Below are positions 19,321-48,621 of a stretch of DNA of 64,000 nt, piece by piece. The stretch lies in NCBI GenBank assembly GCA_963766075.1, contig CAVYAN010000072.1, positions 64,001 to 128,000 on the forward strand. Direction: 5' to 3'. The stretch is from an uncultured cyanobacterium (GTDB lineage Bacteria > Cyanobacteriota > Cyanobacteriia > Leptolyngbyales > Leptolyngbyaceae). Position 1 is the first letter of the stretch, and each line of letters opens with the position of its first letter. Below the pieces are notes generated by a model, which was given only the letters and a program-made list of their open reading frames with translations, was not told the origin of the DNA and made no database searches. A program made the translations under genes and the position numbers.

Positions 19321-20754
19321 ATGGTACCTCTAACGTTACAGGCTACGTATCCGCGCGATGTGCGATCGCCCGCCTTTGGCCAACTGGGCAAAGCGGTTTC
19401 CATGAAAGGAATGCGGGTGATTGCTTTGCTAGCACTGGACATTTTCTCGCTGTGTCTAGCAGAACTCATTTCAGGACTGTTGGGAACACCTTGGTCAACA
19501 TCTTGGTCGATGCCGAGTCATCTCCTAGCCGTGTTGTTTCCCATGCTCAGCATTCAAGTCACGCTGCTGATCGCCGGTAGTTTTTATAAGCCTGGAGAAG
19601 CATGGCGAGACTATACCGGCGTGGCGAAGTCTCTGACCCTCGGCGCAATTTTACTGCTGTTGTTTCTCTATTTTGATCATCCCAGTCAACTGATTTCGCG
19701 ATCGCAGTTCCTTTGGTTTTGGATCTTGAGTATTGCCTTGGTCCTGACCGGACGCTTCTGCATCAACTGTGGGATCAACCAATTACGCCAACGGGGATAC
19801 GCCCGCTACGCTGTCTTCTTGATTGCCGACGCGGAGCACCGGGAGCGATCGGTGGATATCATTCAATGCCGGAATCAGTATCACTTGGCAGGCACCAGTG
19901 GCGCAGCGGCACTCGACGCCGATCAGCAGGAAACCACCCTAGAACACCTGCGGCAACTGGGAGTGGCGGAGGTCTTTGTGTCCTGGAGCGCGATTCAAGA
20001 TCGCCTGTATTTGTGCTGGCAGTTTCAGGCTGCCGGGATCCAACTTCATGTGATTCCCGACAATCTCGATACGCTGTTGCAAAGCTCAACTTCGTGGGCC
20101 TTAAGCACACCACCCACGCTAAGTTTTACGCCGCAATTGATTACCAACAGTGATTTTTGGATTAAGCGCATCTTGGACTTCTGTGGGGCGCTGTTGATAT
20201 TGACGATTTTCTCACCCCTGTATGGGCTGATTGCGTTATTGGTTAAGTTAGATTCTCCAGGGGCCGTGTTTTATCGCCAAACGCGCATTGGCCTGCATGG
20301 CCAACCTTTCCAAGTCTGGAAGTTTCGCACCATGGTCACCAATGCCGATCAACTGCAAGCGAACCTAGAAGCCCAAAACGAATCCAAAGATGGCATCTTA
20401 TTCAAATTAAAGTCTGATCCACGAATTACGCGGGTGGGGAAGTGGCTGCGGCAATATAGCCTGGATGAATTGCCCCAGATCGTGAATGTACTGCTAGGCG
20501 AAATGAGTTTCGTCGGGCCTCGGCCCTTGCCGGTGCGCGATGTTGAGAAGTTTTCCCAGCACCATTTTGTCCGACATCAAGTATTGCCAGGAATTACTGG
20601 ACTTTGGCAGGTTTCCGGGCGATCAGATATTATTAACTTTGAGGATGTGATTCAGTTGGATTTGACTTATATCCAAAATTGGTCACTGTGGTTAGATTTA
20701 CGCATCTGCCTGCAAACAGTTAAGGTCGTATTACAGAAGACCGGGGCCTACTAG
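19321..20754 (+). CDS. Priming sugar transferase (WcaJ/CpsE-type polyprenyl glycosylphosphotransferase)
   Basis: N-terminal TM helices; KFRTM, DPRITRVG, SLDELPQ, GEMSFVGPRP, PGITGLWQV. Confidence 0.92.
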   Translation: MVPLTLQATYPRDVRSPAFGQLGKAVSMKGMRVIALLALDIFSLCLAELISGLLGTPWSTSWSMPSHLLAVLFPMLSIQVTLLIAGSFYKPGEAWRDYTGVAKSLTLGAILLLLFLYFDHPSQLISRSQFLWFWILSIALVLTGRFCINCGINQLRQRGYARYAVFLIADAEHRERSVDIIQCRNQYHLAGTSGAAALDADQQETTLEHLRQLGVAEVFVSWSAIQDRLYLCWQFQAAGIQLHVIPDNLDTLLQSSTSWALSTPPTLSFTPQLITNSDFWIKRILDFCGALLILTIFSPLYGLIALLVKLDSPGAVFYRQTRIGLHGQPFQVWKFRTMVTNADQLQANLEAQNESKDGILFKLKSDPRITRVGKWLRQYSLDELPQIVNVLLGEMSFVGPRPLPVRDVEKFSQHHFVRHQVLPGITGLWQVSGRSDIINFEDVIQLDLTYIQNWSLWLDLRICLQTVKVVLQKTGAY

Positions 20755-21100
20755 ATGTCTAAAGAGCATGTCTAAAGAGCCCGCATCTACCGGATCGGGG
20801 CTGGGGGATGGCCCCTTGCCGCTCCTGCCCAATACCACTACGCGCATAGGGTTCCCCTCGTCCCGTCTCTGCCAAAAGACATTCCCACAGCACGCGCCCA
20901 AAGCATTCTCTGAGTTCATCCCTGGATTGAGTTCATTTCTGCATTAAGTGTATTCCTGGATTGGGTTTATTCCTAGATTGATTGGCCATCGGCATCGCCC
21001 GTCGCCATCGCTGGAAGCACGCAATCTACAGGCTTGTCAGCCCATCGGAAATCAACTCAATCTATCGCCTAGTCCACATTATCGCCATTCAGCCAATATC

Positions 21101-22666
21101 ATGACAGATTCAACTGATTGCACTCCAAGGCTTCCCAGTGACGCGATGATGACCGCGCCCACCGAGACCAGTCCTGCGCCTGAGCAGCTTGCCGTCCCGC
21201 TCAATCTTGAGGGCACACCCGACTCTCGGGCGATCGCCCAGGATTTTCTGGAACACTATGAATCCTTTGTCGATGGGGCTCATGATCATTGGCTGTCTTG
21301 GCAAACACCGCCCTTCTACGTGGAGGATACCCCGGTCACCGAATCGCGGGTCTGGGCTAAGGCGGGCGTAGCGGGCATGGTGGGGCTAGCTGCCATGACT
21401 GCCGCCAGTGTGCTGCTGCCACAGGATACCGTGTCCGCGATCGCCCAAGTGCCCCAAAAGCTCCCCTCGCCTGCGGTCGCACCGAATTCTGCGACCTCCT
21501 CACCCCAAGTGGCACTGCCCGCCCTACCGAGCATAACGGCGATCGCCCCCGCCGAAGTCCTGCCGCAGGTTTCGTCTTTCACCGCCACAGCCGCAGACCC
21601 CGCCCCAACATTGACCATTCCGGCAGTAAGCAGTCCAGCAATTCGCTCCCCCTGGCCCGCTGGACAAGTTATTGGGCAGCAACCGTCTGGTGTGGCACAG
21701 GCGGGCCTGCCCCAGGCTCAATTCGCCTTAACAAAATTACCGCAGCTCGCATTACCCAAAATCAACTTACCTCAGATTCAATCGTCACAAATTCAGTCGT
21801 CACAGATTGAGTCAACAAAGATTGAGTCAACAAAGATTGAATCAACAAAGATTAAATCAACAAAGATTGAATCGTCACAGGCCAATCTATCGTCGGTACA
21901 ATTACCACAGCCTGAATCGTTCCAGAGAAAATCATCCCTAGGCGAATCATCCACAACAGCATCACCACAGCCGGCATTATTACGGGAGATAGGTGCCCCC
22001 TTGACCATTGGCACTCCCCAAGCCATGCCATCGACAGAATGGTCACCAGGAAGCGGCCTCAATGCCATCCAAAGTCCTTCGTCGGCAGAGCCTGAGCCCA
22101 CCACCACCTTCCACCCCCCAGCAGAGCCGAGTACTGAAAAACAGCCAACGCTGGCTGCACCGGGGGCCTCCGGGGTGTTGCCACAGCCCAGCACACCCGT
22201 TGTTCCTGAGTTCACCGAAACCCACCTAAATCAAACGGGGAATCCGTCTTTGGCCGCAATCAAACTGCCGGGAGTGTTCTCAATCAATCCATCGCCACAG
22301 GTCCATCAGGCGATCGCCACGGCCCAGACGTTGCAAGACTTCCTGAAACTATCCCAGAAAATCCCCGAAAACGCCCAGGCGGTGCTATCGCTGACGCCCC
22401 AAGCAGCGCTAGCTGTACCCAATGCGCCGATGGTAGCGAATCTACCTGCCACCGGTGAGCAGAGCGGCCCCCAGGATCAGACAGGATCCCAGAATCAGAC
22501 CCCAGCCACTGAGCACTCTCTACCGTCATTCCAGGTCTTTCGATTGCCAGCCACCTTATATCAAAAAGCCTGGATCGCGCTAACGCAGACCAATGGCCAA
22601 GCCGCTGTACCCACGCATGGCTTCATCGACTATCAAGAACGAGCCATTGTTTTGCCCTCTCTCTAA
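21101..22666 (+). CDS. Pro/Ser/Ala-rich hypothetical membrane-anchored protein
   Basis: Long ORF in the EPS locus with one hydrophobic segment and a low-complexity body; start uncertain (track 20948). Confidence 0.65.
   Translation: MTDSTDCTPRLPSDAMMTAPTETSPAPEQLAVPLNLEGTPDSRAIAQDFLEHYESFVDGAHDHWLSWQTPPFYVEDTPVTESRVWAKAGVAGMVGLAAMTAASVLLPQDTVSAIAQVPQKLPSPAVAPNSATSSPQVALPALPSITAIAPAEVLPQVSSFTATAADPAPTLTIPAVSSPAIRSPWPAGQVIGQQPSGVAQAGLPQAQFALTKLPQLALPKINLPQIQSSQIQSSQIESTKIESTKIESTKIKSTKIESSQANLSSVQLPQPESFQRKSSLGESSTTASPQPALLREIGAPLTIGTPQAMPSTEWSPGSGLNAIQSPSSAEPEPTTTFHPPAEPSTEKQPTLAAPGASGVLPQPSTPVVPEFTETHLNQTGNPSLAAIKLPGVFSINPSPQVHQAIATAQTLQDFLKLSQKIPENAQAVLSLTPQAALAVPNAPMVANLPATGEQSGPQDQTGSQNQTPATEHSLPSFQVFRLPATLYQKAWIALTQTNGQAAVPTHGFIDYQERAIVLPSL
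21776..21880 (+). repeat. Seven 15-bp coding tandem repeats (IQSSQ/IESTK)
   Basis: attgagtcaacaaag-like units x7. Confidence 0.9.
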
Positions 22667-22712
22667 ATCACCCTGAATCCTACCATCACATCTCACCACC
22701 CGGACTACGCCC

Positions 22713-24884
22713 ATGGATACTACTGACTTCTCAGAAGAATTAAATTTTGGCAAATACTGGCTCGTGCTCAAACGGCGTTGGCTGCTGATTGCATTGATTT
22801 CCGGCACGACGTTAGGATTGGCCACGGTCTGGACCCTCCGACAACCTCCCATTTACGAAGCAACAGGGAAATTGTTATTTAAAGCCAACAAAACCTCCAA
22901 CCTGATTGGGATTCAGGCCGATTCCGGCAAACTGGAAGCCCTGACCCAAAAAGGCGATCCGCTGAGCACAGAAGCGGAAATTTTGCGATCGCAGCCGATC
23001 ATCGAAGCCGCCCTAAAAGGGTCAAATTTGCGCAATTCCCGAGGCCAACGCCTAGATCCAAAGGCTGTAGCGGGTAGACTCAGCGTTAAGCCAGTTGTGG
23101 GCACCGATATTTTACAAGTTAACTACACAGCCAATGATGCCCAATTGGCGGCAGCGGTGATTAATCAAGTTATGAAGGCGTATCTCAACAACAATGTTGT
23201 GGTCAATCGAGCCGAAGCCGTCGCCGCCCGAAAGTTTATTATCGATCAATTGCCCGCTACGGAAGCGGCGGTCAATCGGGCTGAAGCTAATCTACGGCAG
23301 TTTAAAGAAGCTAATGGCATTGTGGTGCTCGATCAAGAAGCGATCGCTTCAGTCCAAGGACTATCAGCCCTCGACAAAGAAATCACCACAGCCCGAGCGG
23401 CCCTCGGCAAAGCCAATGCCCAAACCTCGGCCCTGCGTAGCCAAGTGGGAATGGATGCCCGCACTGCCCTAACCCTGAATTCTTTAAACCAGTCTGACGG
23501 CGTTCAAAAAGCACTCACCGAGTGGCAGTTGGTGCAGTCGCAACTGGCTAAACAAAAGACGCTGTACCGTGATGGCTATCCAGTGGTGTCGCAGTTACAG
23601 CGACAAGAAGCTGCTGCCAAGTCTGTTTTACAGGATCGGGTCGCTGGCATTGTGGGGCAGAATATCACGGTCGATCCCGGCAGTCTCCAATTGGGCACCA
23701 CGCGTCAAGAACTCGTCCTTTCCCTGGCGCAGGCGGAGACCGAGCGGTTGGGGTTAGCCAATACCCTAGATTCCCTGACCCAATCCCAGGCGACCTTTGC
23801 GGCGCGATCGCAAAGTATTCCGGCCTTAGAAAAAACCCAGCGACAACTCGAACGAAAACTCGATGCCGCCCAAACCACCTACAAAACGCTCTTGACCAAA
23901 CTCCAAGAGGTCCAAGTCACGGAAAATCAAACCATTGGCAATGCCCGAATTGTGGCCACTGCCGATGTTCCCGAATTTCCGATTGGGCCGAAGGTGTTGA
24001 TTAATTTGCTAGCGGGCGGGATCGTGGGCGTGCTATTGGGCATATCCGCCGCGTTTCTGCTGGACTATGCGGATCAGTCTGTTAAAACCTTGGGTGAAGC
24101 CAAAACGCTGTTTCCTTATCCCTTATTGGGGGTGATTCCGACGATCGCCACCGCGAGCAAAGCAGCAACGGCCTCCGCCATGCCCCAATTGGTCACCCGC
24201 GATCGCCCCGATTTCGGGGCACAGGAAGCCTACCAAATGCTCCAGGCCAATTTACGCTTCTTGACCTCCGATCAGCCTTTGCGAGCGATCGTCGTCACCA
24301 GTACCATGCGTCAGGAAGGCAAGTCCACCGTAGCTGCCAACTTAGCCACCGCCATGGCCCAGGGACAACGGCGGGTACTGTTGGTGGATGCCGATTTGCG
24401 GCATCCCTGCCAGCACCATGTTTGGGATATCAATAATTTGATTGGCCTGAGCAATGTGATTGTAGGTCAAGTTGAATTCACACGAGCCATCCAGTCCGTA
24501 ACCTCCCATTTGGATGTGCTATCAGCAGGGGTCACGCCCCCCAATCCCATTGCCTTACTCGATTCCCAGCGGATGGCCAGCTTGATTGCCACAGCAGTGG
24601 AACAGTATGACTTTGTGATTTTGGATGCCCCGGCGTTATCGGGCACGGCAGATGCCACAGTCCTCAATAAAATGACCGATGGCAGTTTGCTGGTGGTGCG
24701 CCCCGGAGCCATCCAGGCCAGTGCTGGCAAAACGGCCATCCAGTTTCTAGCCCAGTCCGGCCAAACGGTGTTAGGCATGGTGATTAATCATTTTGATGTG
24801 CGAAAAGAACCCGATAGCTATTTCTACTACACCCAAGAGCAACAATTGCAGACTCCAGTCAGTGCTGATGCCGTGAATGGGTAG
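22713..24884 (+). CDS. wzc: Polysaccharide co-polymerase/tyrosine autokinase (Wzc/GumC)
   Basis: Two TM segments, coiled coil, EGKST Walker A, DADLR, C-terminal Tyr cluster SYFYY. Confidence 0.9.
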   Translation: MDTTDFSEELNFGKYWLVLKRRWLLIALISGTTLGLATVWTLRQPPIYEATGKLLFKANKTSNLIGIQADSGKLEALTQKGDPLSTEAEILRSQPIIEAALKGSNLRNSRGQRLDPKAVAGRLSVKPVVGTDILQVNYTANDAQLAAAVINQVMKAYLNNNVVVNRAEAVAARKFIIDQLPATEAAVNRAEANLRQFKEANGIVVLDQEAIASVQGLSALDKEITTARAALGKANAQTSALRSQVGMDARTALTLNSLNQSDGVQKALTEWQLVQSQLAKQKTLYRDGYPVVSQLQRQEAAAKSVLQDRVAGIVGQNITVDPGSLQLGTTRQELVLSLAQAETERLGLANTLDSLTQSQATFAARSQSIPALEKTQRQLERKLDAAQTTYKTLLTKLQEVQVTENQTIGNARIVATADVPEFPIGPKVLINLLAGGIVGVLLGISAAFLLDYADQSVKTLGEAKTLFPYPLLGVIPTIATASKAATASAMPQLVTRDRPDFGAQEAYQMLQANLRFLTSDQPLRAIVVTSTMRQEGKSTVAANLATAMAQGQRRVLLVDADLRHPCQHHVWDINNLIGLSNVIVGQVEFTRAIQSVTSHLDVLSAGVTPPNPIALLDSQRMASLIATAVEQYDFVILDAPALSGTADATVLNKMTDGSLLVVRPGAIQASAGKTAIQFLAQSGQTVLGMVINHFDVRKEPDSYFYYTQEQQLQTPVSADAVNG

Positions 24885-24958
24885 TTTTGCTTGCTGATTC
24901 AATGGGTTGTTAAGGAGCTTGGTTATTCAGGAGTTGGGTTGTTAAGGAGCAAAGGTTA

Positions 24959-26011
24959 ATGGTCAAGACAAAGCAATTTTTAAGTTCGGCGTGGGCGATC
25001 GCCGTTGTTCTCGGCGCAACGGCGATTTGTCCGCCGCCAGCCCAGGCCGTCACCCTGGAGCAGCCGTCACCAAAGACGATCTATTCCGGTTACCTGCTGG
25101 GTGCAGGAGATCAAATTGAAATCTCGGTCCCTGGCTACCAGGATTTTACCGGACCCCGCGTGATTCTACCCGATGGCACGATTTCCTTACCGGTGATCGG
25201 CTCGGTGATGGCCATTGATCGCACGTCTGATCAATTAGCGAAGGACCTTCAGGCGAAATTAGGATCATTTTTAGTGGATCCGATCGTCACTGTCAGCTTG
25301 TCTACGTTACGTCCCGTAGTGGTGAATGTAGCGGGAGAAGTGCAACGTCCAGGCCCACTTCAGCTTCGGAGCCTGACCACGACTACGTTTAAGACCTCGG
25401 GCAGTAGTGTGACCAGTGGACTGGAGGGCGTGCCCACACTCAGCTCAGCTCTCACGGAAGCGGGCGGTGTGACCCGCAATGCTGACATTCGTCAGGTAAT
25501 ATTGCGGCGTACCCTCCCCGGAGGGCAGACCACCAGCGTGACGGTGAATCTGTGGGATGCAATTTGGTCTGACAAGCAACCCGAAGATCTGGTGCTGCGG
25601 GCGGGCGATGCCATTTATGTTCCCAAGTTACCCGAGGGCGCGGTCTTCGATCGCCGATTGCTGGCGCGATCGCGCTTGGCCCCGGCCACGGTGCGGGTGC
25701 GCGTCGTCGGCGAAGTCAACCGACCGGGAGAACTGCTGATTTCACCGGACAGTACCTTATCGAGTGCGATCGCCAATGCGGGCGGTTTTACCAAGGATGC
25801 TAGACCCAGGGAAGTGCGGTTAGTGCGGCTGAATGACCAGGGGCAAATCGATACGCAGGCAATTGATTTAACCCGCCTCAATGACACGCTCCAGGTCCAG
25901 GAAGGAGATGTCCTGGTTGTCCCGGAGAAAGGGCGATCGTCCTTCCTGCGGGTGTTAGGTCAGGTGTTGAGTCCCGTCGGCAGTTTGCTGAATATTATCC
26001 GGGGTTTCTGA
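24959..26011 (+). CDS. wza: Polysaccharide export protein (Wza-like, SLBB domains)
   Basis: YLLGAGDQI...PDGTISLPVIG, GEVQRPG, GEVNRPG. Confidence 0.88.
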   Translation: MVKTKQFLSSAWAIAVVLGATAICPPPAQAVTLEQPSPKTIYSGYLLGAGDQIEISVPGYQDFTGPRVILPDGTISLPVIGSVMAIDRTSDQLAKDLQAKLGSFLVDPIVTVSLSTLRPVVVNVAGEVQRPGPLQLRSLTTTTFKTSGSSVTSGLEGVPTLSSALTEAGGVTRNADIRQVILRRTLPGGQTTSVTVNLWDAIWSDKQPEDLVLRAGDAIYVPKLPEGAVFDRRLLARSRLAPATVRVRVVGEVNRPGELLISPDSTLSSAIANAGGFTKDARPREVRLVRLNDQGQIDTQAIDLTRLNDTLQVQEGDVLVVPEKGRSSFLRVLGQVLSPVGSLLNIIRGF

Positions 26012-26609: not shown

Positions 26610-26924
26610 ATGAACCCGCTAACATCCAATTTTGAACTCTTAAAAACGGCTTCGGTGGTTGCATCCAGCGACCAGATTTCATCTGACTTGGGGGGCGAGT
26701 CTGTCATCCTCAATTTAAAGTCTGGCACCTATTTCGGCTTGAATGAAGTGGGCAGCCGGGTGTGGGAGCTGATTCAATCGCCCCGCCGCTTTGCCGACCT
26801 GTCCATGACGCTTTGCCATGAGTATCTAGTGGACTCTGAGGTTTGCGATCGCGACTTGATGACACTTTTACAAGAGCTGCATACAGCAGGCTTAATTCAG
26901 GTGAGTCATGGAGAAGCTACGTAG
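26610..26924 (+). CDS. Lasso peptide B1 protein (PqqD-family RiPP recognition element)
   Basis: DLGGESVILNLKSGTYFGLNEVGSRVWELI...LLQELHTAGLI; directly upstream of B2 and C. Confidence 0.92.
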   Translation: MNPLTSNFELLKTASVVASSDQISSDLGGESVILNLKSGTYFGLNEVGSRVWELIQSPRRFADLSMTLCHEYLVDSEVCDRDLMTLLQELHTAGLIQVSHGEAT

Positions 26925-27363
26925 AAAACTGCATCGGCTGCGGCAGATAGGCGGACACGGTGTCTGGCTATTGATGATGGCGTTTATCGTGCTGGGAGCC
27001 GTGCGATTGGGGCTTTGGCTGTTGCCCTTTCATCGGGTGCTGCGGGGGTGCGAGACAGTCAGCCAACTCTCGATTCTGCGCCGCCAAGCTTGCTTCGCGG
27101 TGGCCGATCTCATTTGGGCGGTGAATTGCAGCAGTCGCTACATGCCGGGTGGCGTGAAATGTCTAGCCCGCGCGTTAACCACAAAGGTACTGATGCAGCA
27201 GCAAGGGTATGTTCCAGAGTTGAAAATTGGTGTCCGCAAGAGCAGTCAAGGTCACCTAGAGGCCCATGCCTGGATTGACTATAACGGTCACATCGTGATG
27301 GGCAATGTAATGGATTTACCGCGCTATCTGCCGTTACCCTCGCTGGGAGGGATACAACCATGA
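26908..27363 (+). CDS. Lasso peptide B2 leader peptidase (transglutaminase-like)
   Basis: KCLARAL (catalytic Cys), IGV, EAHAWID (His); overlaps both B1 and C. Confidence 0.92.
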   Translation: MEKLRRKLHRLRQIGGHGVWLLMMAFIVLGAVRLGLWLLPFHRVLRGCETVSQLSILRRQACFAVADLIWAVNCSSRYMPGGVKCLARALTTKVLMQQQGYVPELKIGVRKSSQGHLEAHAWIDYNGHIVMGNVMDLPRYLPLPSLGGIQP

Positions 27364-29379
27364 GTGGGATTGTTGGCTTTTATCACTTCAATCCGCCTCG
27401 CTTAAACCCGCCCGCGATCGCCACCAAGGCCCTGCAACACATGGTGGCAGCCCTAAAGCATCGGGGGCCAGATGGATCAGACGTCTGGCAATCGGGCGCA
27501 ATTGGGCTGGGGCATTGTCTGCTACGGACAACGCCCGAGTCTTTGGTGGAATCAATGCCCTATCACCACAACAATTTAGTCATCACCGCCGATGCCCGCA
27601 TTGACAATCGTGAAGAATTGCAGGTTCTTTTAGGGCTATCCCCGCAGTCCTTGGCAAAAATGCCCGATAGCCAGTTTATTTTAGCGGCCTATGAGAAATG
27701 GGGAACAGCCTGTCCCGAATATCTTTTGGGTGACTTTGCCTTTGCCATTTGGGATGGCGATCGGCAACAGCTTTTCTGTGCGCGGGATCACCTGGGGGTG
27801 AAGCCATTTTACTACTATGCCTCGCCTCAACTCTTTGTTTTTGCCTCAGAAATTAAAGCGCTATTTTGTTTGCCAGAAGTGCCCCGGCGGCTGAACGAAG
27901 TGCGGATGGGCGACTTTTTGGCCCTGAGTTTGGATGATCTGGTCCTGACCAGCTATCAAGATATTGTGCGGTTGCCGCCCGCCACTGGCATGATCGTGAA
28001 TGCAGCGGGTGTCCGACTGCAAACCTACTGGACGCTGGATCCCCAGCGGGAGTTGCGTCTAGACTCTGATGAAGCCTATGCCCAAACCTTTCGGCATATT
28101 TTTACTGAAGCGGTTCGCTGTCGGCTGCGGAGTGCGTTTCCCATCGGCAGTCACCTGAGCGGCGGCTTGGATTCGTCGTCGGTGGCCTGTGTGGCTCGTA
28201 ATCTGTTGCAGGCGGAGCAGCAACCATTGCATACGCTGTCTTTAATCTTTGACGCCGTGCCACAGTGTGATGAGCGTTCCTATATCAATACTGTGCTCGC
28301 CCAAGGCGGCATGATCCCCCACTTTATTCATGGCGATCAGTTCAGCGCTTTGTCCAATCTGGATGAAGTGTTTGAGTATGAAGATGAGGCCCTGCTGGGT
28401 CCGAGCCATAGCTATCCCTGGTATCTGAATCAGTTGGCCAGTCAACACAATTTGCGTGTCTGCTTAGATGGTTTCGATGGCGATACGGCGGTGGGACATG
28501 GCGTCCGACGGCTGACGGAATTGGCGCTGCACCTGCAATGGGAGACCTTTGCCCATGAAGCCCGCAGTGTGGCGATTCACTTTGCGGGGTTGGGAGCGTC
28601 GCCCCAGGGCTTACTCGTGAACCATGGGTTTCCAGCATTGCGGCAGTTTGCGCGGCGGGGGCAGTGGCTGAAGTTTGGGCGATCGCTGAATCAAATCCAC
28701 CGCCATTTCAACATTTCACGCAAGGCACTCCTGAAGGAATGCGGCCTCAAAGCCTTGATTCCCGCTGGGCTACAACGGCACTGGCAGCGGCGACAGACAT
28801 CATCCCCGGCCCGTCTTAGCCCCCTTGGCGAATCGGGCCTTTGCCAAGCGGATTGGCCTGGAGCAACGTCTGGGGAAATTGAACACCGCTGTCCCCATGA
28901 CCGTGCGCCAAGAGCAGTGGCAAGCCCTGACCCAGGGCTGCATGGCCTACACCCTGGAACAGGTCGATCAATTTGCCGCCCGGTTTGGAGTGGAAATGCG
29001 CCATCCGTTCATGGACAAGCGGCTAGTGGAGTTTTGCTTGGCGCTCCCGGCAGAGCAAAAGCTGTGCGACGGCTGGACGCGGATGATTATGCGGCGAGGG
29101 TTGGAGGGAATATTGCCGGAGGAAATTCAGTGGCGGGGCGGCAAAATGAATGCTACGCCTAACTTTGTGGATGGGTTGGTGAATCGCGATCGCCAGCTTC
29201 TGGACGCGGTCATGACGTCTAAACTGACGTATCTCCAGGATATGGCGGATTTAGAGGTCCTGACTGCGGCTTACCAGCGCATTACGGCTCAGTCCCCCGC
29301 TCCAGAGGCCGATCACATCCTGGTGTGGCAAGGGGCGAGTCTGGCCGCTTGGCTAGAGCATCACGACTCGATGTTCTAG
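27360..29379 (+). CDS. Lasso cyclase (asparagine synthetase-like isopeptide bond-forming enzyme); one apparent extra C at 28820-28824
   Basis: MSGIVG start (no catalytic Cys1), HRGPDG, ARDHLGVKP, LSGGLDSS, DGFDGD; C-terminal RHPFMDKRLVEFCLALP in the next frame. Confidence 0.9.
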
Positions 29380-29532
29380 GTCATGGGCTCAGGCGAGCGG
29401 GTTCAAGTTTCGGGGTGTATTTGGAGTGGATTCAGGGGTGGATCTGTAGGGTTTTCATTAGATTTAACCTCTGCCCATTCAACGACAATGGATTGACGAT
29501 AGCAATTTAAAAAGAAAAAAGAGGAAAAACCT

Positions 29533-29694
29533 ATGAAACCCTACAATCGGCCCCAACTGACGGTCTACGGCACGGCCAAAACGATCACGCAAGGGTTTGA
29601 TCACCACAATGATAAGGAGATGGCTCCGCTCGTGGCAGAAGCAATGCACGACCGCGACCACCGCCCCCGGAACGGTTCCTGCGATTTCGGTTGA
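29533..29694 (+). CDS. Lasso precursor A1, 53 aa: MKPYNRPQLTVYGTAKTITQ-GFDHHNDKEMAPLVAEAMHDRDHRPRNGSCDFG
   Basis: Hand-translated, not in the ORF track; GAGG RBS, YxxPxL leader motif, Thr at -2, Gly1, Asp7/Glu9. Confidence 0.88.
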   Translation: MKPYNRPQLTVYGTAKTITQGFDHHNDKEMAPLVAEAMHDRDHRPRNGSCDFG

Positions 29695-29844
29695 TGCGCG
29701 CTTGAAAAGTTGGGCAAGCACCCTTGGCAGGCCCAAATAAAGCATGGAAGCGATTCCTGTCTTGATCTGGGCCGTAAGTCCAATCAGAAAGGGGCACTAC
29801 CGGACCATGTTTGACATTCAATCTACGAAAATTAGGAGACTCCT

Positions 29845-30069
29845 ATGAAGAAGTACAAAAGTCCCCGGTTGGTGACCTACGGCAACGTAGAAACCTTAAC
29901 CCAAGCCAATGGAAACGGCTCAGCTAACGATTTCTTTATCTTTACGGGTGATATTACTGGTCAGGTTCCAGGCTCAACCTTTGGAGCATCTGGATCAGGT
30001 AACGTAAATGCAACACCACCTTCCATAAAAAATAGCCTGTTTCTAGCCTTAGAAGCGTTAATACGTTAG
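29845..30069 (+). CDS. Lasso precursor A2, 74 aa: MKKYKSPRLVTYGNVETLTQ-ANGNGSANDFFIFTG...
   Basis: AGGAG RBS, YxxPxL leader, Thr at -2, Ala1, Asp9; leader 10/20 identical to A1. Confidence 0.88.
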   Translation: MKKYKSPRLVTYGNVETLTQANGNGSANDFFIFTGDITGQVPGSTFGASGSGNVNATPPSIKNSLFLALEALIR

Positions 30070-30425
30070 CGGATTGGAGGGTTATCTACGGATACACCCA
30101 AAACCAAGACCAGGGACCAATACATTGGGGTAGTTTGGGGGAGGCAATTGGCACTTGCCCCGTGCCAATTACTCAACGCCAGAGAGCCACTTTTATTGGT
30201 CCCTTTTCTCACTCCATTAGTTCTTTTCCAGCCTATTCTTTTCCACCCTATTGATTCTATTGAATCGCTCAGTCATTCGTTATCAACGTGCATTACAGAA
30301 GACGATGTAACACAGATGCTTTCCAAAATTGAAGCAAATAACACGAGGCCATGAACCTAATCCCTAGATAGTTTATTGAATCAAAACTCAATTCGACTTG
30401 TAACTTTATGTAAAACTAATAATCT

Positions 30426-31394
30426 ATGAAAATTTATCATGCCTATAACTTAGTGATTTATTCAGAGCTATCCATCCCAGAACTGACGCCCTATTCTGGA
30501 GCTTCATCAACGGATTGGCCTCGCCGATCCTCTGACGTGCTAGCCACTGATGTGCCCTTTGCACCCGATGCCGATGTCGTCATTCGCTTTGGCAATGTCC
30601 AGCGGGAAGCCGACCACTATGTTGACCCCACGCGAGACGATCCAAGCTACTTGTTTGTCCGTGAGGATGGCGTGGGCGCATTCTTTATCCGTCAAGGTTG
30701 TGAGATTGTGATTGACCCAGTGAAACATTTCGATGCGGGCTACCTGCGAACCTTGTTGCTGGGTCCGGTTTTTGCAATTTTGCTCCGGCAGCGGGGGCTG
30801 TTGGTACTGCATGCCAGCGCTGTCAAAATGGGTGACTGTGCCGTGGCGTTTCTAGGGGGATCGGGCTGGGGTAAATCAACCCTGGTGACGGCCTTTCACC
30901 AGCGGGGAAATACGGTGCTGACGGATGATGTAATGCCCTTGCAGATGGATGGAGGGTTGTCGCTGGTGCTGCCATCCTATCCCCAATTTAAATTGTGTCC
31001 GGATGCGGCAGCGTCCTTTGGCAAAGAAGAAGAACTGGTACCCATTTTTCAGGGCGCGGGCAAACTCGCCTACAGCATTACCGATGGATTTCAGCACACC
31101 CCACTGCCACTCCAGCACATTTATATTTTGGGCAAAGGCGATCGCCATGCCATTGTTCCTGTTGCCCCACAACTGGCATTTATGGAACTGGTGCAACACA
31201 CCCGGGCCATGATTAGCCTGACTCAAGCCCCATTTCTGGCCGCGCATTTTCAACTCTGTACCCAACTGGTGAAAACGGTTCCGGTTTCGCGCTTTATCCG
31301 CAGGCCCGCCCTGGAAGAGTTGCCCCGCCTGATGGACATGATCGAGGCGGATGTGGCGCAATCGGTAAAACCAGATTTGGTCGGAGTGCCCTAG
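30426..31394 (+). CDS. HPr kinase-like lasso peptide kinase
   Basis: LHASAV, GGSGWGKST P-loop, LTDD; position in the lasso cluster. Confidence 0.85.
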   Translation: MKIYHAYNLVIYSELSIPELTPYSGASSTDWPRRSSDVLATDVPFAPDADVVIRFGNVQREADHYVDPTRDDPSYLFVREDGVGAFFIRQGCEIVIDPVKHFDAGYLRTLLLGPVFAILLRQRGLLVLHASAVKMGDCAVAFLGGSGWGKSTLVTAFHQRGNTVLTDDVMPLQMDGGLSLVLPSYPQFKLCPDAAASFGKEEELVPIFQGAGKLAYSITDGFQHTPLPLQHIYILGKGDRHAIVPVAPQLAFMELVQHTRAMISLTQAPFLAAHFQLCTQLVKTVPVSRFIRRPALEELPRLMDMIEADVAQSVKPDLVGVP

Positions 31395-31457
31395 GCATCG
31401 GCCCCAGATGCCCCTACCCCTCAATTCGCTTAGTTCACTCTCTAGAAGCCGCCCCCC

Positions 31458-33339
31458 GTGAACGCCACCCTCCGCCATGCCAAAACCATCCTCCGCCAGG
31501 GACACAACACTGGCTCCCTAATTTGGGCCGCTGCCCGCTACTGGAGCTGTGTCTGGGTGGGCCTATTGGTGATTCAAGGCATCCTGCCCGGAATGACCGT
31601 ATACCTAACGCGGCACGTCGTCGATAGCCTGGTCGGAGCCGTGGGTGCAGGCATCTCCTGGCACAGTATCCAATCGGTGCTGCTGCCCGCCAGTGTGATG
31701 GCTGGAGTCCTGGTTTTGCAGCAGGTGCTGGATGGCGTCAGCAGTTGGGTCAATACGGCCCAGTCGGAACTGATTCAAGACCATGTGAGCGATCTGATTC
31801 AGAAAAAATCCGTCGAAATTGACTTCTCTCGCTATGACAGCTCTGACTACTATGACCAGCTCGAACGGGCGCGGGGCGGAGCCGCAGGGCGATCGCTGGC
31901 CATGCTGGGCAATGTCGGGGGCATCGTGCAAAACAGCATTACTCTGCTCACCCTGGCCGCAATTTTATTGCCCTATGGCCTCTGGCTGCCGATCATTCTG
32001 GTCCTGAGTGCGCTGCCCGCATTCTATATTGTGCTGCGACTCAATCGGCAGCAGTATCAGTGGAACCAAAAAATCACCACCGATCAGCGCTGGCTGATGT
32101 ACTACGAATTACTGCTGACCAACAGCGCCGTAGCCGCCGAAGTCCGCCTGTTTGACTATGGTGACTACATTCGCACCGCTTACCAACGGATTCGTAAACG
32201 CCTGCGGCAAGAACGATTGGCGCTGGTTCAGAGCCAAGGACTAGGCCGATTCGGGGCGGGCCTGATTGCCCTCACGCTCTCTAGCTTAGCCCTAGTGTGG
32301 ATGGGACATCAATTGCTTTTGGGTGTGCTCAAGCTGGGTGATCTGGCGCTGTTTTATCAGGCGTTTACCCGAGGCCAGGGCATGGTCAGCGCTATTTTTG
32401 GGGGACTCGGGCAGCTCTATCAAAATAGTTTATTTATGGGTGACTTGTTTGATTTCCTGAAGCTGCAGCCCCAAATTGTCGATCCACCCCAGCCATTGCC
32501 CCTGCCGCAGTCCATGCAGTCCGGCATTCAGTTTAAAGGGGTGCGATTTTGCTATCCTGGGGCACCCCAGTCCCACCTTGGATAACTTTAATTTAACGAT
32601 TCCGGCAGGCCAGATTGTGGCGATCGTGGGCGACAATGGCGCGGGCAAAAGCACACTGATTAAGTTACTCTGCCGACTCTACGATCCCCAGGCTGGATGC
32701 ATCGAAATCGATGGGCAAGATATCCGCCAATTTTCCGTCAAGGCGCTGCGGCGATTCATTACCGTGCTGTTTCAGTCTCCCATTCCCTACTACACGACGG
32801 CCACGGAGAACATCACCCTCAGTGATATTCACACGCCACCGCCCGCCGGGGCCATTGAAGCTGCGGCTAGGGCCGCTGGCATCCACGACAAGCTGCTGAG
32901 TTTGCCCAGTGGGTACCAAACCCTATTGGGCAAGCTGTTTCCCGAAGGTACGGAGTTGAGTGGTGGCCAGTGGCAGCGGTTGGCTCTCGCCCGAGCTTTT
33001 TTCCGTCAGGCTCCGCTGATTATTTTGGATGAGCCGACCAGTGCCATGGATTCCTGGGCCGAGTTTGACTGGTTAAAGCGGTTTCGTCACCTGGCCCACG
33101 GGCGCACGGCGGTGGTGATTACCCATCGGTTTACCTTGGCCATGCAGGCGGATGTGATCCATGTGATGCGGGCGGGCCAAATTGTGGAAACGGGCACCCA
33201 CCGTGAGCTGTTGGATCAGGCTGGAATCTATGCCCAATCGTGGCGATCGCAAATGGAAACGCCTGCCGATGCAGCAGTTGAAGCCCTGGACACCGCCAAT
33301 AGCCCTGCTCAAAATCTCGCCGGAAAATTCTCACCATAG
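31458..33339 (+). CDS. ABC exporter (TMD+NBD), lasso cluster D protein; apparent extra G at 32559-32562
   Basis: Multi-TM N-terminal half, then GDNGAGKST, LSGGQWQRLALAR, ILDEPT in the second frame. Confidence 0.88.
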
Positions 33340-33371
33340 GGTTTTCTCGGGCAAACCATGCCGCCATCCCC

Positions 33372-34097
33372 ACACTGTCGTCTCATCCTCAAGGCCATGT
33401 GAATCCTATGCAAACAACCCGCTTGCCGCATTCGCCCGATCTACCTTCGCCAGACCCGCTACAGTCGGTGCCCCAGAACGTTCAGCCGCCCATCTCGCCA
33501 GAAATGAATTTGCTGATCGACTGTGCCCGCACCCAGATTGCCGATCCAATGGCGCAACACATTCGGGCGCTCTGTGGCTCGGCGTTGGATTGGGCGGTGC
33601 TGTTGCAGCTTGCCCAGCAGCATCGCCTGCTGCCCTTGCTGTACATTAACCTGAACACCATTTGTCCGGAGTTAGTGCCCGCGCCCATACTGCAAGAGTT
33701 GCAAAGGCTCTATCGACAAAACGGGCTACACTGTCGTCTCATCCTCAAGGTCATGTCCTCCAGGTCATGTGAATCCTATGCCAACACCCTGCTTGCCGCA
33801 TTCGCCCAATCTAGATTCGCCAGATCGGCTACAGTCAGTGCCCCAGAACGTTCAGCCGCCCATCTCGCCAGAAATGAATTTGCTGATCGACTGTGCCCGC
33901 ACCCAGATTGCCGATCCAATGGCGCAACACATTCGGGCGCTCTGTGGCTCGGCGTTGGATTGGACGGTGCTGTTGCAGCTTGCCCATCAGCATCGCCTGC
34001 TGCCCTTGCTGTACATTAACTTGAACACCATTTGTCCGGAGTTAGTGCCCGCGCCCATACTGCAAGAGTTGCAGAGCCTCTATCGACAAAACGGACT
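33372..34097 (+). repeat. Diverged tandem duplication (356 bp + 370 bp) of the nucleotidyltransferase 5' region
   Basis: Copy 1 33372-33727 and copy 2 33728-34097 nearly identical; copy 2 has an extra 14 bp. Confidence 0.9.
33399..33727 (+). pseudogene. Truncated duplicate of the nucleotidyltransferase N-terminus
   Basis: Encodes the same first ~110 aa, then runs out of frame into copy 2. Confidence 0.7.
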
Positions 34098-35074
34098 GCA
34101 TAATCTCCGCTTTACAGGGGAGCTGATCCAACTCTTGAAGAGCTTAAAGGCACAGGGGTTTGAGGCGGTGCCCTTTAAAGGCCCGGTGTTGGCGATCGCG
34201 GCCTATGGAAATTTGAACCTGCGGATGTTTGGCGATCTGGATATTTTGGTACAGACCAAAGACTATCTGCCCGTCCGGAACTTCCTGATCAGCCAAGGCT
34301 ATAGGACGGGTGAATCATGGCATTTTTCCAAAGCAGAAGAAGAAGCCCATATCACCTGGTTTGGTGAATGTGCCCTCATCCACCCGGAGCGGCGGGTCTC
34401 GATTGACCTGCATCAACGTTTAGTCGCGGGCTATTTATTTCGACTTTCTAGAAACTTTGATGCGATCTGGACGCGGCTAAAACCGATCGCGATCTTAGAA
34501 AAAACGGTGGAAAGCCTCAAGCCGGAGGACTTGCTTTTATATCTATGCATCCATGGCACCAAGGATTTCTGGCAACGCCTCACTTGGATCTGTGATATTT
34601 CCGAATTGATTGAGAGACACCCCACACTGCAATGGGATGAAGTGTTCGAGCAAGCCAAAGAACACGGGCAGAGCGGATGCTGCGCTTAGGGCTGGCCCTC
34701 GCGCATCAGATTTTAGGCACAGTCTTACCCTCCTGAAATTCAGGCCAAGATCCGAACGGATGTCTCCCTGGAGCGGGTAGTCTAGCGACCTCCGCCAGAA
34801 GATATACCACAACACAAACACACCACCCGGCAGGGTGACACCCAATGAGTTTTGGTACTACATGCAAGTGATGGACAATTGGCTAGAGCGCTTACATCTT
34901 AGCCGCCTCTACCTATGGCATTGGACGTTCTTTTCAGTGCAGAAATGGATTCGGCCCACCGCTAACGATCGCCTGTTTTGTCAATTGCCGGATGCTTGGT
35001 ACGGTCTGTACTATCTGATTCGTCCTTTCCGCTTAACAACTAAACTGCTGGGTTTAGCGAGACGGCACCCGTAA
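33769..35074 (+). CDS. Nucleotidyltransferase family protein (NTP_transf_5-like); about three apparent frameshifts at 34665-34790
   Basis: FKGPVLA..AYGNLNLRMFGDLDILV, IDLH, LYLCIHG.K..W.RL.WICDI; C-terminal LYYLIRPFRL in ORF 34835-35074. Confidence 0.82.
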
Positions 35075-35194: not shown

Positions 35195-36031
35195 GTGATG
35201 TACCAACCGACTTATCCAAGCAATGCCCCCCGACCTCCGGCGGAAACGTTGCCCACGATGTACGATTTGCCCAGTGAAGATCCGGAGGATCTTGATCTGA
35301 GCAATGCGCCGCGACCTCCGGCAGAAGTGCTGCCCACGATGTACGATTTGCCCAGTGAAGATCCGGAGGAGCCCGGTTTGCCCGATGAATTTCATGATTT
35401 TCAGCCGAAGTTGCTGCGTGAGACGTATCAGCGGATCGGGGAGGGTGTGGAGCCAGTGTTTATCGGGGCTGACCTGAATCTTTATTACGATGCCCGCCAT
35501 CCGCGTTGGTATAAACGCCCGGATTGGTTTTTGGTGTTGGGGGTGATCTCGGGAACGCAGCAAAGCGATTTGCGGTTGAGCTATGTGACGTGGCAAGAGG
35601 GCGTTGACCCATTTTTAGTGGTGGAGCTGCTGTCACCGGGAACGGAGGCGGAGGATTTGGGGCAGACGTTGCGCGAGGTGAATCAGCCGCCAACAAAGTG
35701 GCATGTGTATGAGCAAATTTTGCGGATTCCTTACTATGCCGTGTTTGACCGCTACACGATGCAGTTTCGCTTGTTTCGGCTAGTGGCCACGCACTATGAA
35801 GAACTCCCACTGGACGATCGCCGCTATTGGTTTGCGGAGTTGCAGTTGGGTCTGGGGGTGTGGTCGGGCCGGTATAGCGGCGTGGAGGGCCAATGGTTGC
35901 GTTGGTATGACGGGGCGGGGCATTGGCTGGCGACGGCGGTGGAGCGGGCGGAACAGGAAGCCCAACGGGCGGACCGATTGGCGGCTCGGTTGCGATCGCT
36001 CGGCATTGATCCGGACCAAATTGATGACTAA
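35195..36031 (+). CDS. Uma2 family (DUF820) endonuclease-like protein
   Basis: LPTMYDLPSEDPEEPGLPDEFH, RPDWF, VELLSPGT, C-terminal AEQEAQRADRLAARLRSLGIDP. Confidence 0.88.
   Translation: MMYQPTYPSNAPRPPAETLPTMYDLPSEDPEDLDLSNAPRPPAEVLPTMYDLPSEDPEEPGLPDEFHDFQPKLLRETYQRIGEGVEPVFIGADLNLYYDARHPRWYKRPDWFLVLGVISGTQQSDLRLSYVTWQEGVDPFLVVELLSPGTEAEDLGQTLREVNQPPTKWHVYEQILRIPYYAVFDRYTMQFRLFRLVATHYEELPLDDRRYWFAELQLGLGVWSGRYSGVEGQWLRWYDGAGHWLATAVERAEQEAQRADRLAARLRSLGIDPDQIDD
35219..35370 (+). repeat. In-frame 81-bp-period duplication in the Uma2 N-terminus
   Basis: SNAPRPPAE(T/V)LPTMYDLPSEDPE(D/E) twice. Confidence 0.9.
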
Positions 36032-36183
36032 TATTGATGACCAAATTGAGGCGTAGGCGATCGCGTTGGGGGCGGCGAGACTCCGATCCATTGCACGGCC
36101 TCGGGGTGATGGCGTCGCTTGGGCGATAGAATAAAATAAGCAGGGCTAGAATCAGCAGAACTTGCGTCACCCATGAGGACTGC

Positions 36184-36764
36184 ATGATTTCCCTTCAGTA
36201 CTTCGTTCCAGAGGGTTTCCGCGATCGCGCCACAACCGATTACAGGACCGCCTGGTATTGTACTGCGGGGGATTAGTTGGGCAACCTATCAAGCACTGGT
36301 GCGCGAACTTGAGTGCCAACCAACCAAACGCTTCACCTATGATCAGGGTCTGCTGGAAATTTTCATGCCCCTACCCCCTCATGAAAGCTATAAGCGCTGG
36401 ACCGGTCGTTATTCAAAACGAGGCCACCATCCGGGGGAAAATGAACATCGATTTAGCGATCGACCCACCACCGGATTTGGCCATCGAAATTGATATCACG
36501 AGTCCGTCACTGCCTCGCTTACCGATCTATGGAGCGCTGGGGATTCCTGAGGTCTGGCGGTTTGATGGAGAAAACATGGTGCTGCTTGCCCTTGTCGGTG
36601 GTAGCTATCAGGAAATCCAAACTTCGATCGCGCTGCCCAGGGTGACTCCAGCCGTTTTGCAAACCTGGCTGAGCCAAGCAATCACGATGGGCGAAACCCA
36701 TTGGGCCAAGGCCCTGCGTCGCTGGGTCCGGGAGCAATCAACTCGGGCAACAGAGCTGAATTAA
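36184..36764 (+). pseudogene. Degenerate Uma2 family gene with frameshifts and an internal deletion near 36410
   Basis: Fragments RFTYDQGLLEIFMPLPPHE and IQNE...DPPPDLAIEIDITS...GIPEVWRFDG in different frames; the central PD segment is absent. Confidence 0.7.
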
Positions 36765-36788
36765 ACAGGCAAAACGTCACGGTGGGGC

Positions 36789-37173
36789 TTGAGACGGATT
36801 ATACCGGTGCCGATTTTCTCTACCAATACTCCGGACACTTTTGCCGACGTTTGCCATGCGGGTTTGAAGCACCTGGCGGTCATCTCAGAGGGGATGGCTG
36901 TGAAGTTAAGCGAGTATTGGTTGTGCGAAGTCTGTAGGGGATATGACTTTGAGGTGCCCTTTGATAACAATCAAGCGGAGCGCGATATTCGCATGATGAA
37001 GTTGAAGCAGAAAATCTCAGGTTCGTTTCGCTCTCAGGCTGGGGCTCAGATGTTCTGTCGCATTCGCGGCTATCTCTCTACTCTCAGGAAACAAGGCATT
37101 GATGTGTTGGATGCCTTGACGAGTCTTTTTATGGGCGATCTTATCGTCCCCGACTTCTCCGCTGAGTAGTTAC
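36789..37173 (+). mobile_element. IS66-family transposase 3' remnant with right end
   Basis: [27 protein letters not shown]...[15 protein letters not shown]; ends GCTGAGTAGTTAC (GTAA on the reverse strand). Confidence 0.8.
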
Positions 37174-45994: not shown

Positions 45995-48621
45995 TTATGG
46001 CGTGGTCAATACTTCCGACGACAGGCGCTTGAATTCCAGGCGTTCGGTATCTCCCACGTCTACAAAAATGGTATCACCGTCAGCAAAGTCGCCCCGCAGA
46101 ATGGATTTGGCGATCGCCGTTTCCAACTCCCGCTGGATTGCCCGCTTCAGCGGACGGGCCCCGTAGACAGGATCGTAGCCCACATCGGCGAGAAAATCGA
46201 GGGAGGCATCGGAGAGCTTCAGGGACATCTTGCGATCGCTTAACCGACGGCTCAACCGAGCCACCTGCAGTTGCACGATCTTGCGCAATTCAGACTTTTG
46301 CAAGCTGTGGAAAATGATCGTGTCATCAATCCGGTTAAGGAATTCCGGACGGAAATTGCTACGCATCGCTTCCATCACCCGACTGCGCATCTCAGCATAG
46401 CGATTCTCATCTCCGGCCACATCGAGGATGTACTGTGAGCCAATATTACTGGTCATGATGATCACACAGTTTTTGAAGTCCACCGTGTGGCCCTGGGCAT
46501 CAGTGACCCGCCCATCATCCAGAATTTGCAGCATGATGTTGAACACATCGGGATGCGCTTTCTCAATTTCATCAAACAGGATGACGGCGTAGGGACGGCG
46601 GCGAATGGCTTCGGTAAGTTGTCCCCCTTCGTCATAACCCACATAACCAGGAGGCGCACCGATCAATCGAGCTACTGAGTGCTTTTCCATGTATTCCGAC
46701 ATGTCAATCCGCACCATGGCTTCGTCGGTATCGAACATATAGGTGGCCAGGGCTTTGGCCAGCTCCGTTTTGCCCACGCCCGTGGGTCCCAGAAAGATGA
46801 AGCTAGCAATAGGCCGATTGGGATCAGCGAGGCCCGCCCGCGATCGCTCGAATGGCATCTGCTACTGCCGTGACGGCTTCTTCCTGTCCCACCACCCGCT
46901 GGTGCAATTCTTCCTCTAGGTGCAACAGTTTTTCCATTTCTGAGGCCACCAATTTGCTAATCGGAATCCCCGTCCACTTGGAAATAATTTCGGCAACGTC
47001 AGACTCCGTGACTTCCTCTCGCAGCAGGGATTTGCCGCTGGTTTGAGTCTCGGCCAGTTTGGCTTCGGCTTCTTGCAGCTTGCGGTTGAGTTCGGTCATC
47101 TTGCCGTATTTCAACTCAGCGGCCCGATTCAGGTCATAATCCCGTTCTGCTTGGGCCACTTCAGTGTTGACACGATCAATTTCTTCCTTCAAGGTCTGGA
47201 TGTCATTAATGATGCCTTTTTCAGATTGCCATTGGGCATTAAACGTGGATTGCTCCTGTTTCAGATCAGCAAGCTCTCGTTCCAATTTTTCCAGGCGATC
47301 GCGGGAGGCGCGATCGCTTTCCTTCTGCAAAGACAGCCGCTCCATTTCCAATTGCAGAATTTTGCGATCGACCTCATCCAAATGTTCAGGTTTGGAGGTG
47401 ATTTCCATTTTCAATTTAGCGGCAGCTTCGTCCACCAAATCGATGGCTTTGTCGGGGAGAAAGCGATCGCGTAATGTAGCGCGTGGATAATGTAGCCGCA
47501 GCGACCAAGGCATTATCAGCAATCTTCACCCCATGATGCACTTCATAGCGCTCCTTCAGGCCCCGCAAAATTGAAATCGTATCTTCGACGCTAGGCTGAT
47601 CAACATACACCTGTTGGAAGCGCCGTTCCAACGCTGCATCCTTTTCCAAATATTTGCGATATTCATCCAGGGTTGTGGCACCCACACAGCGCAGTTCCCC
47701 TCGAGCCAACAGCGGCTTCAGCAGATTACCCGCATCCATGGCCCCTTGGCTGGCCCCGGCCCCCACCACAGTATGAATTTCGTCAATAAATAGAATAATG
47801 TGTCCCCGGGAATCCATGACTTCCTTCAGCACGGCCTTGAGGCGTTCTTCAAATTCCCCCCGATACTTGGCTCCGGCAATCAAGGCTCCCATATCTAAGG
47901 CGATCAGCTTCCGATCCTGCAAGGATTGGGGCACATCGCCATTGATGATGCGCTGGGCCAGTCCTTCGGCGATCGCAGTTTTACCTACACCAGGCTCCCC
48001 AATCAGCACGGGATTATTCTTCGTGCGGCGCGACAGGATTTGGATCGTGCGGCGAATTTCGTCATCTCGCCCAATCACCGGGTCCAATTTGCCCTGGCGG
48101 GCGGCTTCTGTCAGGTCGCGCCCATATTTTTCCAATGCCTCATATTTGCCTTCCGGGTTCTGGTCCGTCACTTTCTGGCTACCTCGAATTTGCGTGATTG
48201 CTTGTTTGAGTTTTTCGGGATCGAGTTTCAGTTCGGCAAATAGCCCTTTACCAAAGCGGGCATCCTCGCCGTAGGACAACAGCACATGCTCTACAGAAAT
48301 GAAATCATCGCCATACTGTTTTTTCACGGCATCGGCCCGGTCCAACAGTGTGTCCAAGCTGCGGCCCATGTAGACAGATCCCGCACTGTTCCCAGACACC
48401 TTCGGTTGGCGCTGAATAAAGCTGTCCGTATAGTCGCGCACGCGCTGCACACTCACGTCGAGCTTACTGAAAACGCTGTTGGTGATGCCTTCCTGCTCAA
48501 CCAACGCCTTCATTAGATGTTCCGTTTCAATCTGCTGTTGCTGGGCCTGCTTAACAATCTCCATGGTGCGGACGATCGCTTCCCAGGCTTTTTCAGTCAT
48601 TTGGGATTGGTTCGGTTGCAT
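45995..48621 (-). CDS. clpB: ATP-dependent chaperone ClpB; two apparent frameshifts near 47472 and 46850
   Basis: [26 protein letters not shown], coiled-coil middle domain, [16 protein letters not shown]. Confidence 0.95.

Follow-up and report, generated by a model that had tools for sequence, protein, structure and literature searches.

Which residue does a lasso peptide kinase modify when the precursors encoded beside it do not end in serine? The question is raised by a gene cluster at 26610-35074 of a 64,000-nucleotide stretch of DNA (hereafter the window; contig CAVYAN010000072.1) from an uncultured cyanobacterium of the family Leptolyngbyaceae, where two precursor genes, A1 and A2, stand among genes for lasso peptide maturation, a peptide kinase, an exporter and a nucleotidyltransferase. 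On balance, we lean towards reading it as a cyanobacterial lasso cluster in which the kinase would phosphorylate a conserved mid-tail serine (Ser29 of A1, Ser31 of A2), the nucleotidyltransferase may add a sugar, and the frameshifts in the locus are probably assembly errors. The substrate site, in other words, has probably moved into the tail.

Neither precursor ends in serine

Characterised kinases of the paeninodin type modify a C-terminal serine (PMC9266682; PMC6993621), and PsmN, an uncharacterised nucleotidyltransferase with a D-x-D metal motif, is needed to place a hexose on the phosphate in pseudomycoidin (PMC6993621). The first-pass annotation had modelled this locus on both systems. 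Its assignment to the lasso peptides and its expectation of modified products hold, but the analogy breaks down at the substrate, as no terminal serine is present in either precursor: A1 ends in Gly, and the homologues of A2 end in Pro. A hexose on a C-terminal phosphoserine, as in pseudomycoidin, has no counterpart here either, since there is no C-terminal serine to carry it.

Both precursors otherwise look like lasso precursors, with a YxxPxL leader, Thr at position -2 and an acidic residue at core positions 7-9. A1 (29533-29694, + strand) has 53 amino acids and a 33-residue core that begins with Gly and offers Asp7 and Glu9 as possible ring acceptors; at 22.4 bits it stays below the cut-off of 33 for the NCBIfam model NF033528. 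A single homologue, P0001, was found in the protein collection searched. The A1 reading frame agrees with that of relatives, and two contigs, X3 and X4, span it without gaps (contigs X1-X4 come from related strains at low depth, not from the source sample). A2 (29845-30069, + strand) scores 41.3 bits and passes the same model; its core begins with Ala and carries Asp9. Beyond about position 30014 its tail is probably read in the wrong frame, and the true length is likely about 61 amino acids, as in the orthologue P0003 (61 amino acids, 89% identical, ending in Pro). The last residue of A2 and of its three closest homologues is Arg (the frameshifted tail) or Pro.

Related kinases can use internal serines, since there is precedent at Ser3: BsfK from Bradymonas sediminis phosphorylates Ser3, a ring residue of a core that is 21 residues long and preceded by Ile at -2 (PMC10368454), and LppK, from the linear polyphosphorylated peptides of Bacillota, also phosphorylates Ser3 (PMC13381572). 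The combination of Ser or Thr at core position 3 with Ile or Val at -2 is absent here, position 3 being Asp in A1 and Gly in A2. What the two precursors do share is a serine in mid-tail. In A1 this is Ser29 (29677-29679, + strand), set in G-S-C-D, aligned with a near-invariant serine column and the sole Ser, Thr or Tyr of the core; in A2 it is Ser31 (29995-29997, + strand), set in G-S-G-N and corresponding to S51, near-invariant in alignment A4, in which Thr19 at the -2 position is invariant. Both are predicted phospho-acceptors, and with a single hydroxyl residue in its core, A1 makes a clean probe.

A mid-tail serine motif in the window's kinase clade

To place the kinase, we paired kinases with precursors up to 2.2 kb upstream and reconstructed a tree of 138 kinases, after removing six duplicates and two rows outside 230-420 amino acids. 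The window kinase fell within a 63-row clade (FastTree support 98); a quick IQ-TREE reconstruction assigned it to two starred sets (16 and 18 rows), and the wider 26-row group had a value of 90. A terminal serine occurs in 3 of the 61 in-clade neighbouring cores versus 35 of 73 out-of-clade cores, and the pattern [GDN]-S-x-[DN] after core position 12 is found in 49/61 versus 1/73. The motif was first noticed on an initial set (28/34 in-clade, 0/48 outside) and recurred in loci fetched afterwards (21/27 and 1/21, respectively). Across 2000 shuffles of the 61 in-clade cores, the mean was 9.6 motif-bearing cores and the maximum 21.

Alignment of the cores located the conserved positions: 64 of 67 rows have Ser in the serine column, 66/67 have Asp in the ring Asp column, and 58/67 have Asp or Asn two residues after the motif serine. 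No in-clade core carries Ser or Thr at position 3 (0/61), Gly3 being present in 57; 29 of the 61 have no serine at positions 1-8, and every one has a serine beyond position 12, the candidate lying at core positions 23-38. In 48 of the clade's other 62 rows, the kinase gene comes immediately after the precursors.

The kinase itself (30426-31394, + strand; 322 amino acids) is intact and HPrK-like, with the motif residues H129, G144, G147, G149, K150, S151, D167 and D168. These include the His-Lys-Asp-Asp kinase motif (H129, K150, D167, D168), and the spacing of the catalytic motif equals that of BsfK. Residues H129, K150, S151, D167, D168, K213 and R292 are kept in 63/63 clade kinases, and the His, Lys, Ser, Asp and Asp motif residues are invariant across 134 kinase homologues. 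Two arginines, Arg260 (61/63) and Arg121 (53/63), mark the clade and are absent from most of the 34 terminal-serine kinases. The predicted structure has a PEPCK/HPrK fold (predicted local distance difference test, pLDDT, 92), and searching solved structures with the kinase sequence gave no hit below an E-value of 0.45. A predicted kinase-precursor complex, with a median score of 0.24 against a mark of 0.32 and controls not folded, weighs neither way. A PadeA-family search returned nothing in 301 genomes, and a profile search with the kinase retrieved no named enzyme.

These patterns suggest, at roughly even chances in our estimation, a widespread and mostly cyanobacterial lasso subfamily that carries a phosphate, possibly a phospho-sugar, on the serine of a mid-tail G-S-x-D motif. 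The bulky group could lock the long tail in a 9-residue ring, and the two clade-specific arginines would read the motif Asp.

Proposed pathway and relation to known systems

By analogy with the pade, psm and bsf pathways, B1 would bind the leader and present the precursor, and the kinase would act while the precursor is still uncut, placing the phosphate on the mid-tail serine that conservation alone suggests. B2 would then cleave after Gln20, and the cyclase would join the new N-terminus to Asp9 in A2 or to Glu9 or Asp7 in A1, forming a 9-residue ring, with a ring of 7 possible for A1. The PF14907 nucleotidyltransferase may add a hexose to the phosphate before the ATP-binding cassette (ABC) transporter would export the product; this sugar transfer is the weakest step, its gene being damaged in the assembly. 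Because the nucleotidyltransferase is the most damaged gene of all, a second decoration in this strain is our least secure claim.

The pairing of kinase and nucleotidyltransferase resembles known pathways, but by its predicted substrate site the system lies outside the paeninodin, pseudomycoidin and bsf types. The clusters of paeninodin (PadeK) and of ThcoK and SyanK share the split B1/B2, the cyclase, the HPrK-like kinase and the ABC exporter (PMC9266682), but their kinases use the C-terminal serine missing in both precursors here, and the order in the window is B1-B2-C-A-A-K-D-N. The pseudomycoidin (psm) cluster likewise combines a kinase with a nucleotidyltransferase; its site is a C-terminal serine, and the window gene, PsmN-like with its GDLD motif, is frameshifted and partly duplicated. 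The bsf cluster (BsfK, BsfN) has the same seven gene types, a precursor without C-terminal serine and a kinase acting on an internal serine (PMC10368454), yet Ser3 never occurs in cores of the window's clade, and position -2 holds Thr here. The LppK system shares an HprK-like kinase, a recognition element, an NTP transferase and an exporter resembling MsbA but has neither cyclase nor B2 (PMC13381572). A2 and the cyclase pass the cut-offs of the NCBIfam models lasso_cyano (NF033528) and lass_lactam_cya (NF033535), which are annotation models only; for neither did the literature searched contain a characterised product.

Lasso clusters of cyanobacteria have been noted in genome data (PMC9332814; PMC6993621). 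One source gives paeninodin and pseudomycoidin as the only phosphorylated lasso peptides (PMC12639078), and a 2026 review names phosphorylation of the C-terminal serine, the string 'cyanobacteri' being absent from its available text (PMC13352647). Neither a characterised cyanobacterial lasso peptide nor a mid-tail site was found in the open full-text literature searched, supplements aside; the RODEO data set may list these cores.

The cluster itself is one of many, and the comparison sharpens the question of which residue the kinase modifies, in a large uncharacterised group, where a terminal serine is lacking. If the proposal is true, lasso kinases would have, besides the C-terminal serine and Ser3, a third class of site in the mid-tail serine. 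Lasso engineering would gain an internal kinase guided by sequence and perhaps a site for phosphoglycosylation, and the proposed locking of the knot by tail decoration would be put to the test. It would also indicate which masses to look for in strains available in culture, Fischerella thermalis PCC 7521 (locus L018) and Calothrix sp. PCC 7716 (L023) among them. For the A1 core, the calculated monoisotopic mass is 3742.63 when cyclised, 3822.60 with phosphate added and 3984.65 with a hexose as well.

Assembly errors or decay

Six frameshifts interrupt the cluster, one each in the cyclase (near 28797), A2 (near 30014) and the ABC exporter (near 32564) and three in the nucleotidyltransferase (near 34670, 34733 and 34785). 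In addition, a tandem duplication of some 360 bp affects the nucleotidyltransferase gene at its 5' end (33372-33727, + strand; second copy 33728-34097; 95% identity over 300 nucleotides). As assembled, the cluster is therefore not complete, as it had first been called. The cyclase and exporter breaks had already been flagged and are confirmed in the assembly; the A2 shift, the three nucleotidyltransferase shifts and the duplication had gone unmentioned. The genes for the kinase, B1 and A1 are uninterrupted in the assembly.

We consider it fairly likely that the frameshifts are assembly errors. For most of the breaks this rests on two observations: pgi, icd, uvrC and clpB are split in the same genome, and the surplus bases in cyclase and exporter are absent from contigs of relatives. 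The cyclase break is a single extra base near 28797, absent from contigs X1, X2 and X3, and the exporter break a single extra base near 32564, absent from X1 (one run); at A2 position 30014, X2 carries one base more than the window. Of 96 orthologues that passed the filter among 219 long open reading frames (ORFs) of a complete relative, six are frameshifted in this genome (8 shifts, ~107 kb): pgi, uvrC, icd, an aspartate aminotransferase and two without a family at the threshold used. Within the window, clpB (46824-48621, - strand) and the carotenoid isomerase gene crtH (55744-57325, + strand) are also split by frameshifts. A dicodon frameshift screen served as a rough rate only, with false positives such as the B2/C overlap.

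The nucleotidyltransferase is left out of this judgement. The profile match of the gene changes frame three times, the X1 contig fails to align over 34664-34860, and none of the related-strain contigs spans 33264-33899; the duplicate is either a real duplication or two strain versions assembled in series. Source reads were not found: four runs sharing 6-13% of words proved to be related strains, and no RNA run is listed.

A doubtful but serious alternative is that the cluster is decaying in this strain, its frameshifts and duplication being real and no peptide being made, with close relatives keeping the open frame. Six frameshifts and a duplication within 8.5 kb are many. Even when counted as four separate break events they exceed the 0.6-1.2 expected from the background (P 0.004-0.03), which speaks against assembly error. 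The duplicate and its copy differ mainly by substitutions, fragments of Uma2 genes and of an IS66 transposase lie directly downstream, and the cyclase was found in a single one of 36 genomes from the same family, so that the cluster is dispensable there. Against decay, housekeeping genes are broken likewise, and all three nucleotidyltransferase shifts lie within a single patch of 120 bp, as expected from a stretch of bad consensus. At conserved columns the window proteins deviate within the range of intact homologues (up to 30 for each), albeit above the median for most pieces, and of the base differences from relatives, 24 of 36 codons are silent among the 40 listed (154 more are not listed).

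Other roles for the motif and other products

Several observations weigh against the mid-tail serine as the kinase's target. The cyclase tree splits as the kinase tree does, which points to one evolutionary event, so that the motif could instead serve the cyclase, the fold or a target. The strict motif is missing from 12 of the 61 in-clade cores, most of which nevertheless have Ser at the aligned position, and a terminal serine is absent from 38 of 73 out-of-clade cores as well; P0001, the sole A1 homologue, has the motif plus a terminal serine. Fourteen clade kinases have no precursor detected within 2.2 kb upstream, and for six clade kinases (L195-L200) the surrounding stretches of 10-16 kb hold no cyclase, B1 or B2. 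The kinase tree contains no characterised kinase (PadeK, PsmK or BsfK), and many clade rows are related Nostocales.

An apparent mismatch between the cyclase and kinase trees in FastTree disappeared with IQ-TREE on 35 rows (approximately unbiased test, p 0.68); being unsupported, it is not taken as evidence that the motif follows the kinase. Separately, L195 has a precursor-like ORF 1.3 kb downstream.

It is thus possible, if rather unlikely in our view, that the G-S-x-D motif is structural and stays unphosphorylated, acting in cyclase recognition, as a plug or in target binding, while the kinase uses another substrate or variable residues. Such a role would agree with a motif that tracks both clades, that of the cyclase and that of the kinase, with the stand-alone kinases of the same clade that have no lasso cluster nearby, and with serines at ring positions 5 and 6 in 17/61 and 18/61 cores. 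It fits poorly with the position of the kinase gene, directly behind the precursors in most of the clade, and with A1, which has no alternative Ser, Thr or Tyr. One core has Thr in the serine column, the swap expected of a phospho-acceptor, and small Gly-Ser residues make a poor steric plug. Phosphorylation of the mid-tail serine remains our preferred reading.

Unlikelier still, the products may be cyclised but unthreaded (branched-cyclic), or A1 may be a poor substrate drifting from the A2 type. The tails are long, with 9-residue rings in cores of 33 and about 41 residues, and A1 falls below the NCBIfam cut-offs and has one known homologue. Moreover, pseudomycoidin without tail modifications is reported not to be threaded (PMC6993621). 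On the other side, A2 has Phe10-Phe11 behind the ring, as does most of the clade, and both known copies of A1 keep the leader and tail motifs, Thr at -2 and an acidic residue at each of positions 7 and 9, only the middle varying. Apart from this, the A1 core (29593-29691) is rich in His, Asp and Arg and differs from the clade consensus behind the ring.

Least probable of all is ordinary paeninodin-type chemistry after a protease has trimmed the tail so that the motif serine becomes the C-terminus: the sequence beyond the motif does vary from 5 to 28 residues, like a disposable follower, and one out-of-clade precursor, at L023, has a typical ...LTFS end plus six extra residues, but a scan of 14 representatives shows no peptidase in the gene families that recur nearby, the Asp/Asn at +2 is conserved, and two or more cysteines in 23/61 in-clade cores, mostly past the motif, suggest that the tail is kept.

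Gene content and distribution of the cluster

Family searches bore out the first-pass description of co-directional genes over this span, in the order B1-B2-C-A1-A2-kinase-ABC-nucleotidyltransferase, all on the + strand, and the overlaps read from the sequence, 17 nucleotides for B1/B2 and 4 for B2/C, agree with it as well. B1 (26610-26924; 104 amino acids) is a recognition element for RiPPs, peptides synthesized on ribosomes and modified after translation, of the PqqD family (PF05402, E-value 4e-18, passing; NF033536, 76.8 bits, just below the cut-off of 80). B2 (26908-27363; 151 amino acids) is a transglutaminase-like leader peptidase with CLARA and HAWID motifs (NF033537, 100 bits against a cut-off of 33; PF13471). 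The cyclase, an asparagine-synthetase-like macrolactam synthetase (27360-29379), is split in the assembly and matches NF033535 in two frames, with 696 bits (positions 1-477) and 220 bits (487-668); it starts MSG and so has no N-terminal Cys, and its SGGLDSS loop is present. This trio constitutes the lasso pathway gene set. The ABC exporter, permease plus ATPase (31458-33339), and the PsmN-like nucleotidyltransferase with the GDLD motif (33769-35074; PF14907, 212 bits) complete the locus. No second lasso cyclase locus was found in the genome (85% complete), and a promoter and terminator scan stayed at chance level (5 versus 7.2 and 10 versus 9.9). We conclude that this is a real lasso cluster of common layout, known here from its genes and probably intact in nature.

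Nor is this layout rare. A cyclase query gave at least 590 matches among 601 candidate stretches, of which 78 loci were kept and two added; among these 80 loci, many of them cut by contig ends, B1 was present in 72, B2 in 69, the kinase in 72, the ABC ATPase in 58 and the nucleotidyltransferase in 48, and NCBIfam already holds the lasso_cyano precursor model. The kinase was found in 61 of 400 sampled other genomes of the class (E-value 1e-25 or better) and in none of 39 genomes of the window's own family. The layout is ordinary among cyanobacteria and patchy near this genome. A metagenome scan with the kinase yielded 56 pattern matches, none confirmed. Three archaeal records (L064, L066 and L070; two Methanobacterium, one Euryarchaeota) hold a related cyclase, kinase and precursor.

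Neighbouring genes and additional observations

Directly upstream of the cluster, and not belonging to it, lies a polysaccharide export locus (19321-26011, + strand) with a WcaJ-type transferase, a 572-residue low-complexity ORF without Pfam or NCBIfam match, Wzc and Wza. A polysaccharide gene is nearby in 13/18 long in-clade loci versus 8/27 out-of-clade loci and 2/20 control stretches (one relative). Kinship may explain this association, and any tie to sugar supply is speculation. After the cluster (35195-37169, + strand) come a Uma2 gene that contains an internal duplication of 81 bp, another Uma2 fragment and the IS66 transposase fragment. Further away, three overlapping ORFs (12430-18385, - strand) probably form one large secreted protein with two frameshifts; its phytase-like and PhoD-like parts and its RTX-type tail all score under the family cut-offs.

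Beyond the window, four loci (L013, L023, L025 and L043) carry two tandem lasso clusters each, with one kinase per clade in L023, L025 and L043 and both kinases from the window's clade in L013. The frequency of two or more cysteines in the in-clade cores (23/61, e.g. L005, L009, L017, L018) compares with 6/67 outside and may reflect tail disulfides. Among the distinct out-of-clade cores, 21/67 have no Asp or Glu at positions 7-10 (e.g. L076, L165, L156) and 22 start with Gln; ring sizes may be unusual or the cut site shifted there. Finally, L128 and L129 encode, beside out-of-clade kinases, precursor-like ORFs whose poly-Arg cores end in Ser and carry no acidic ring residue.

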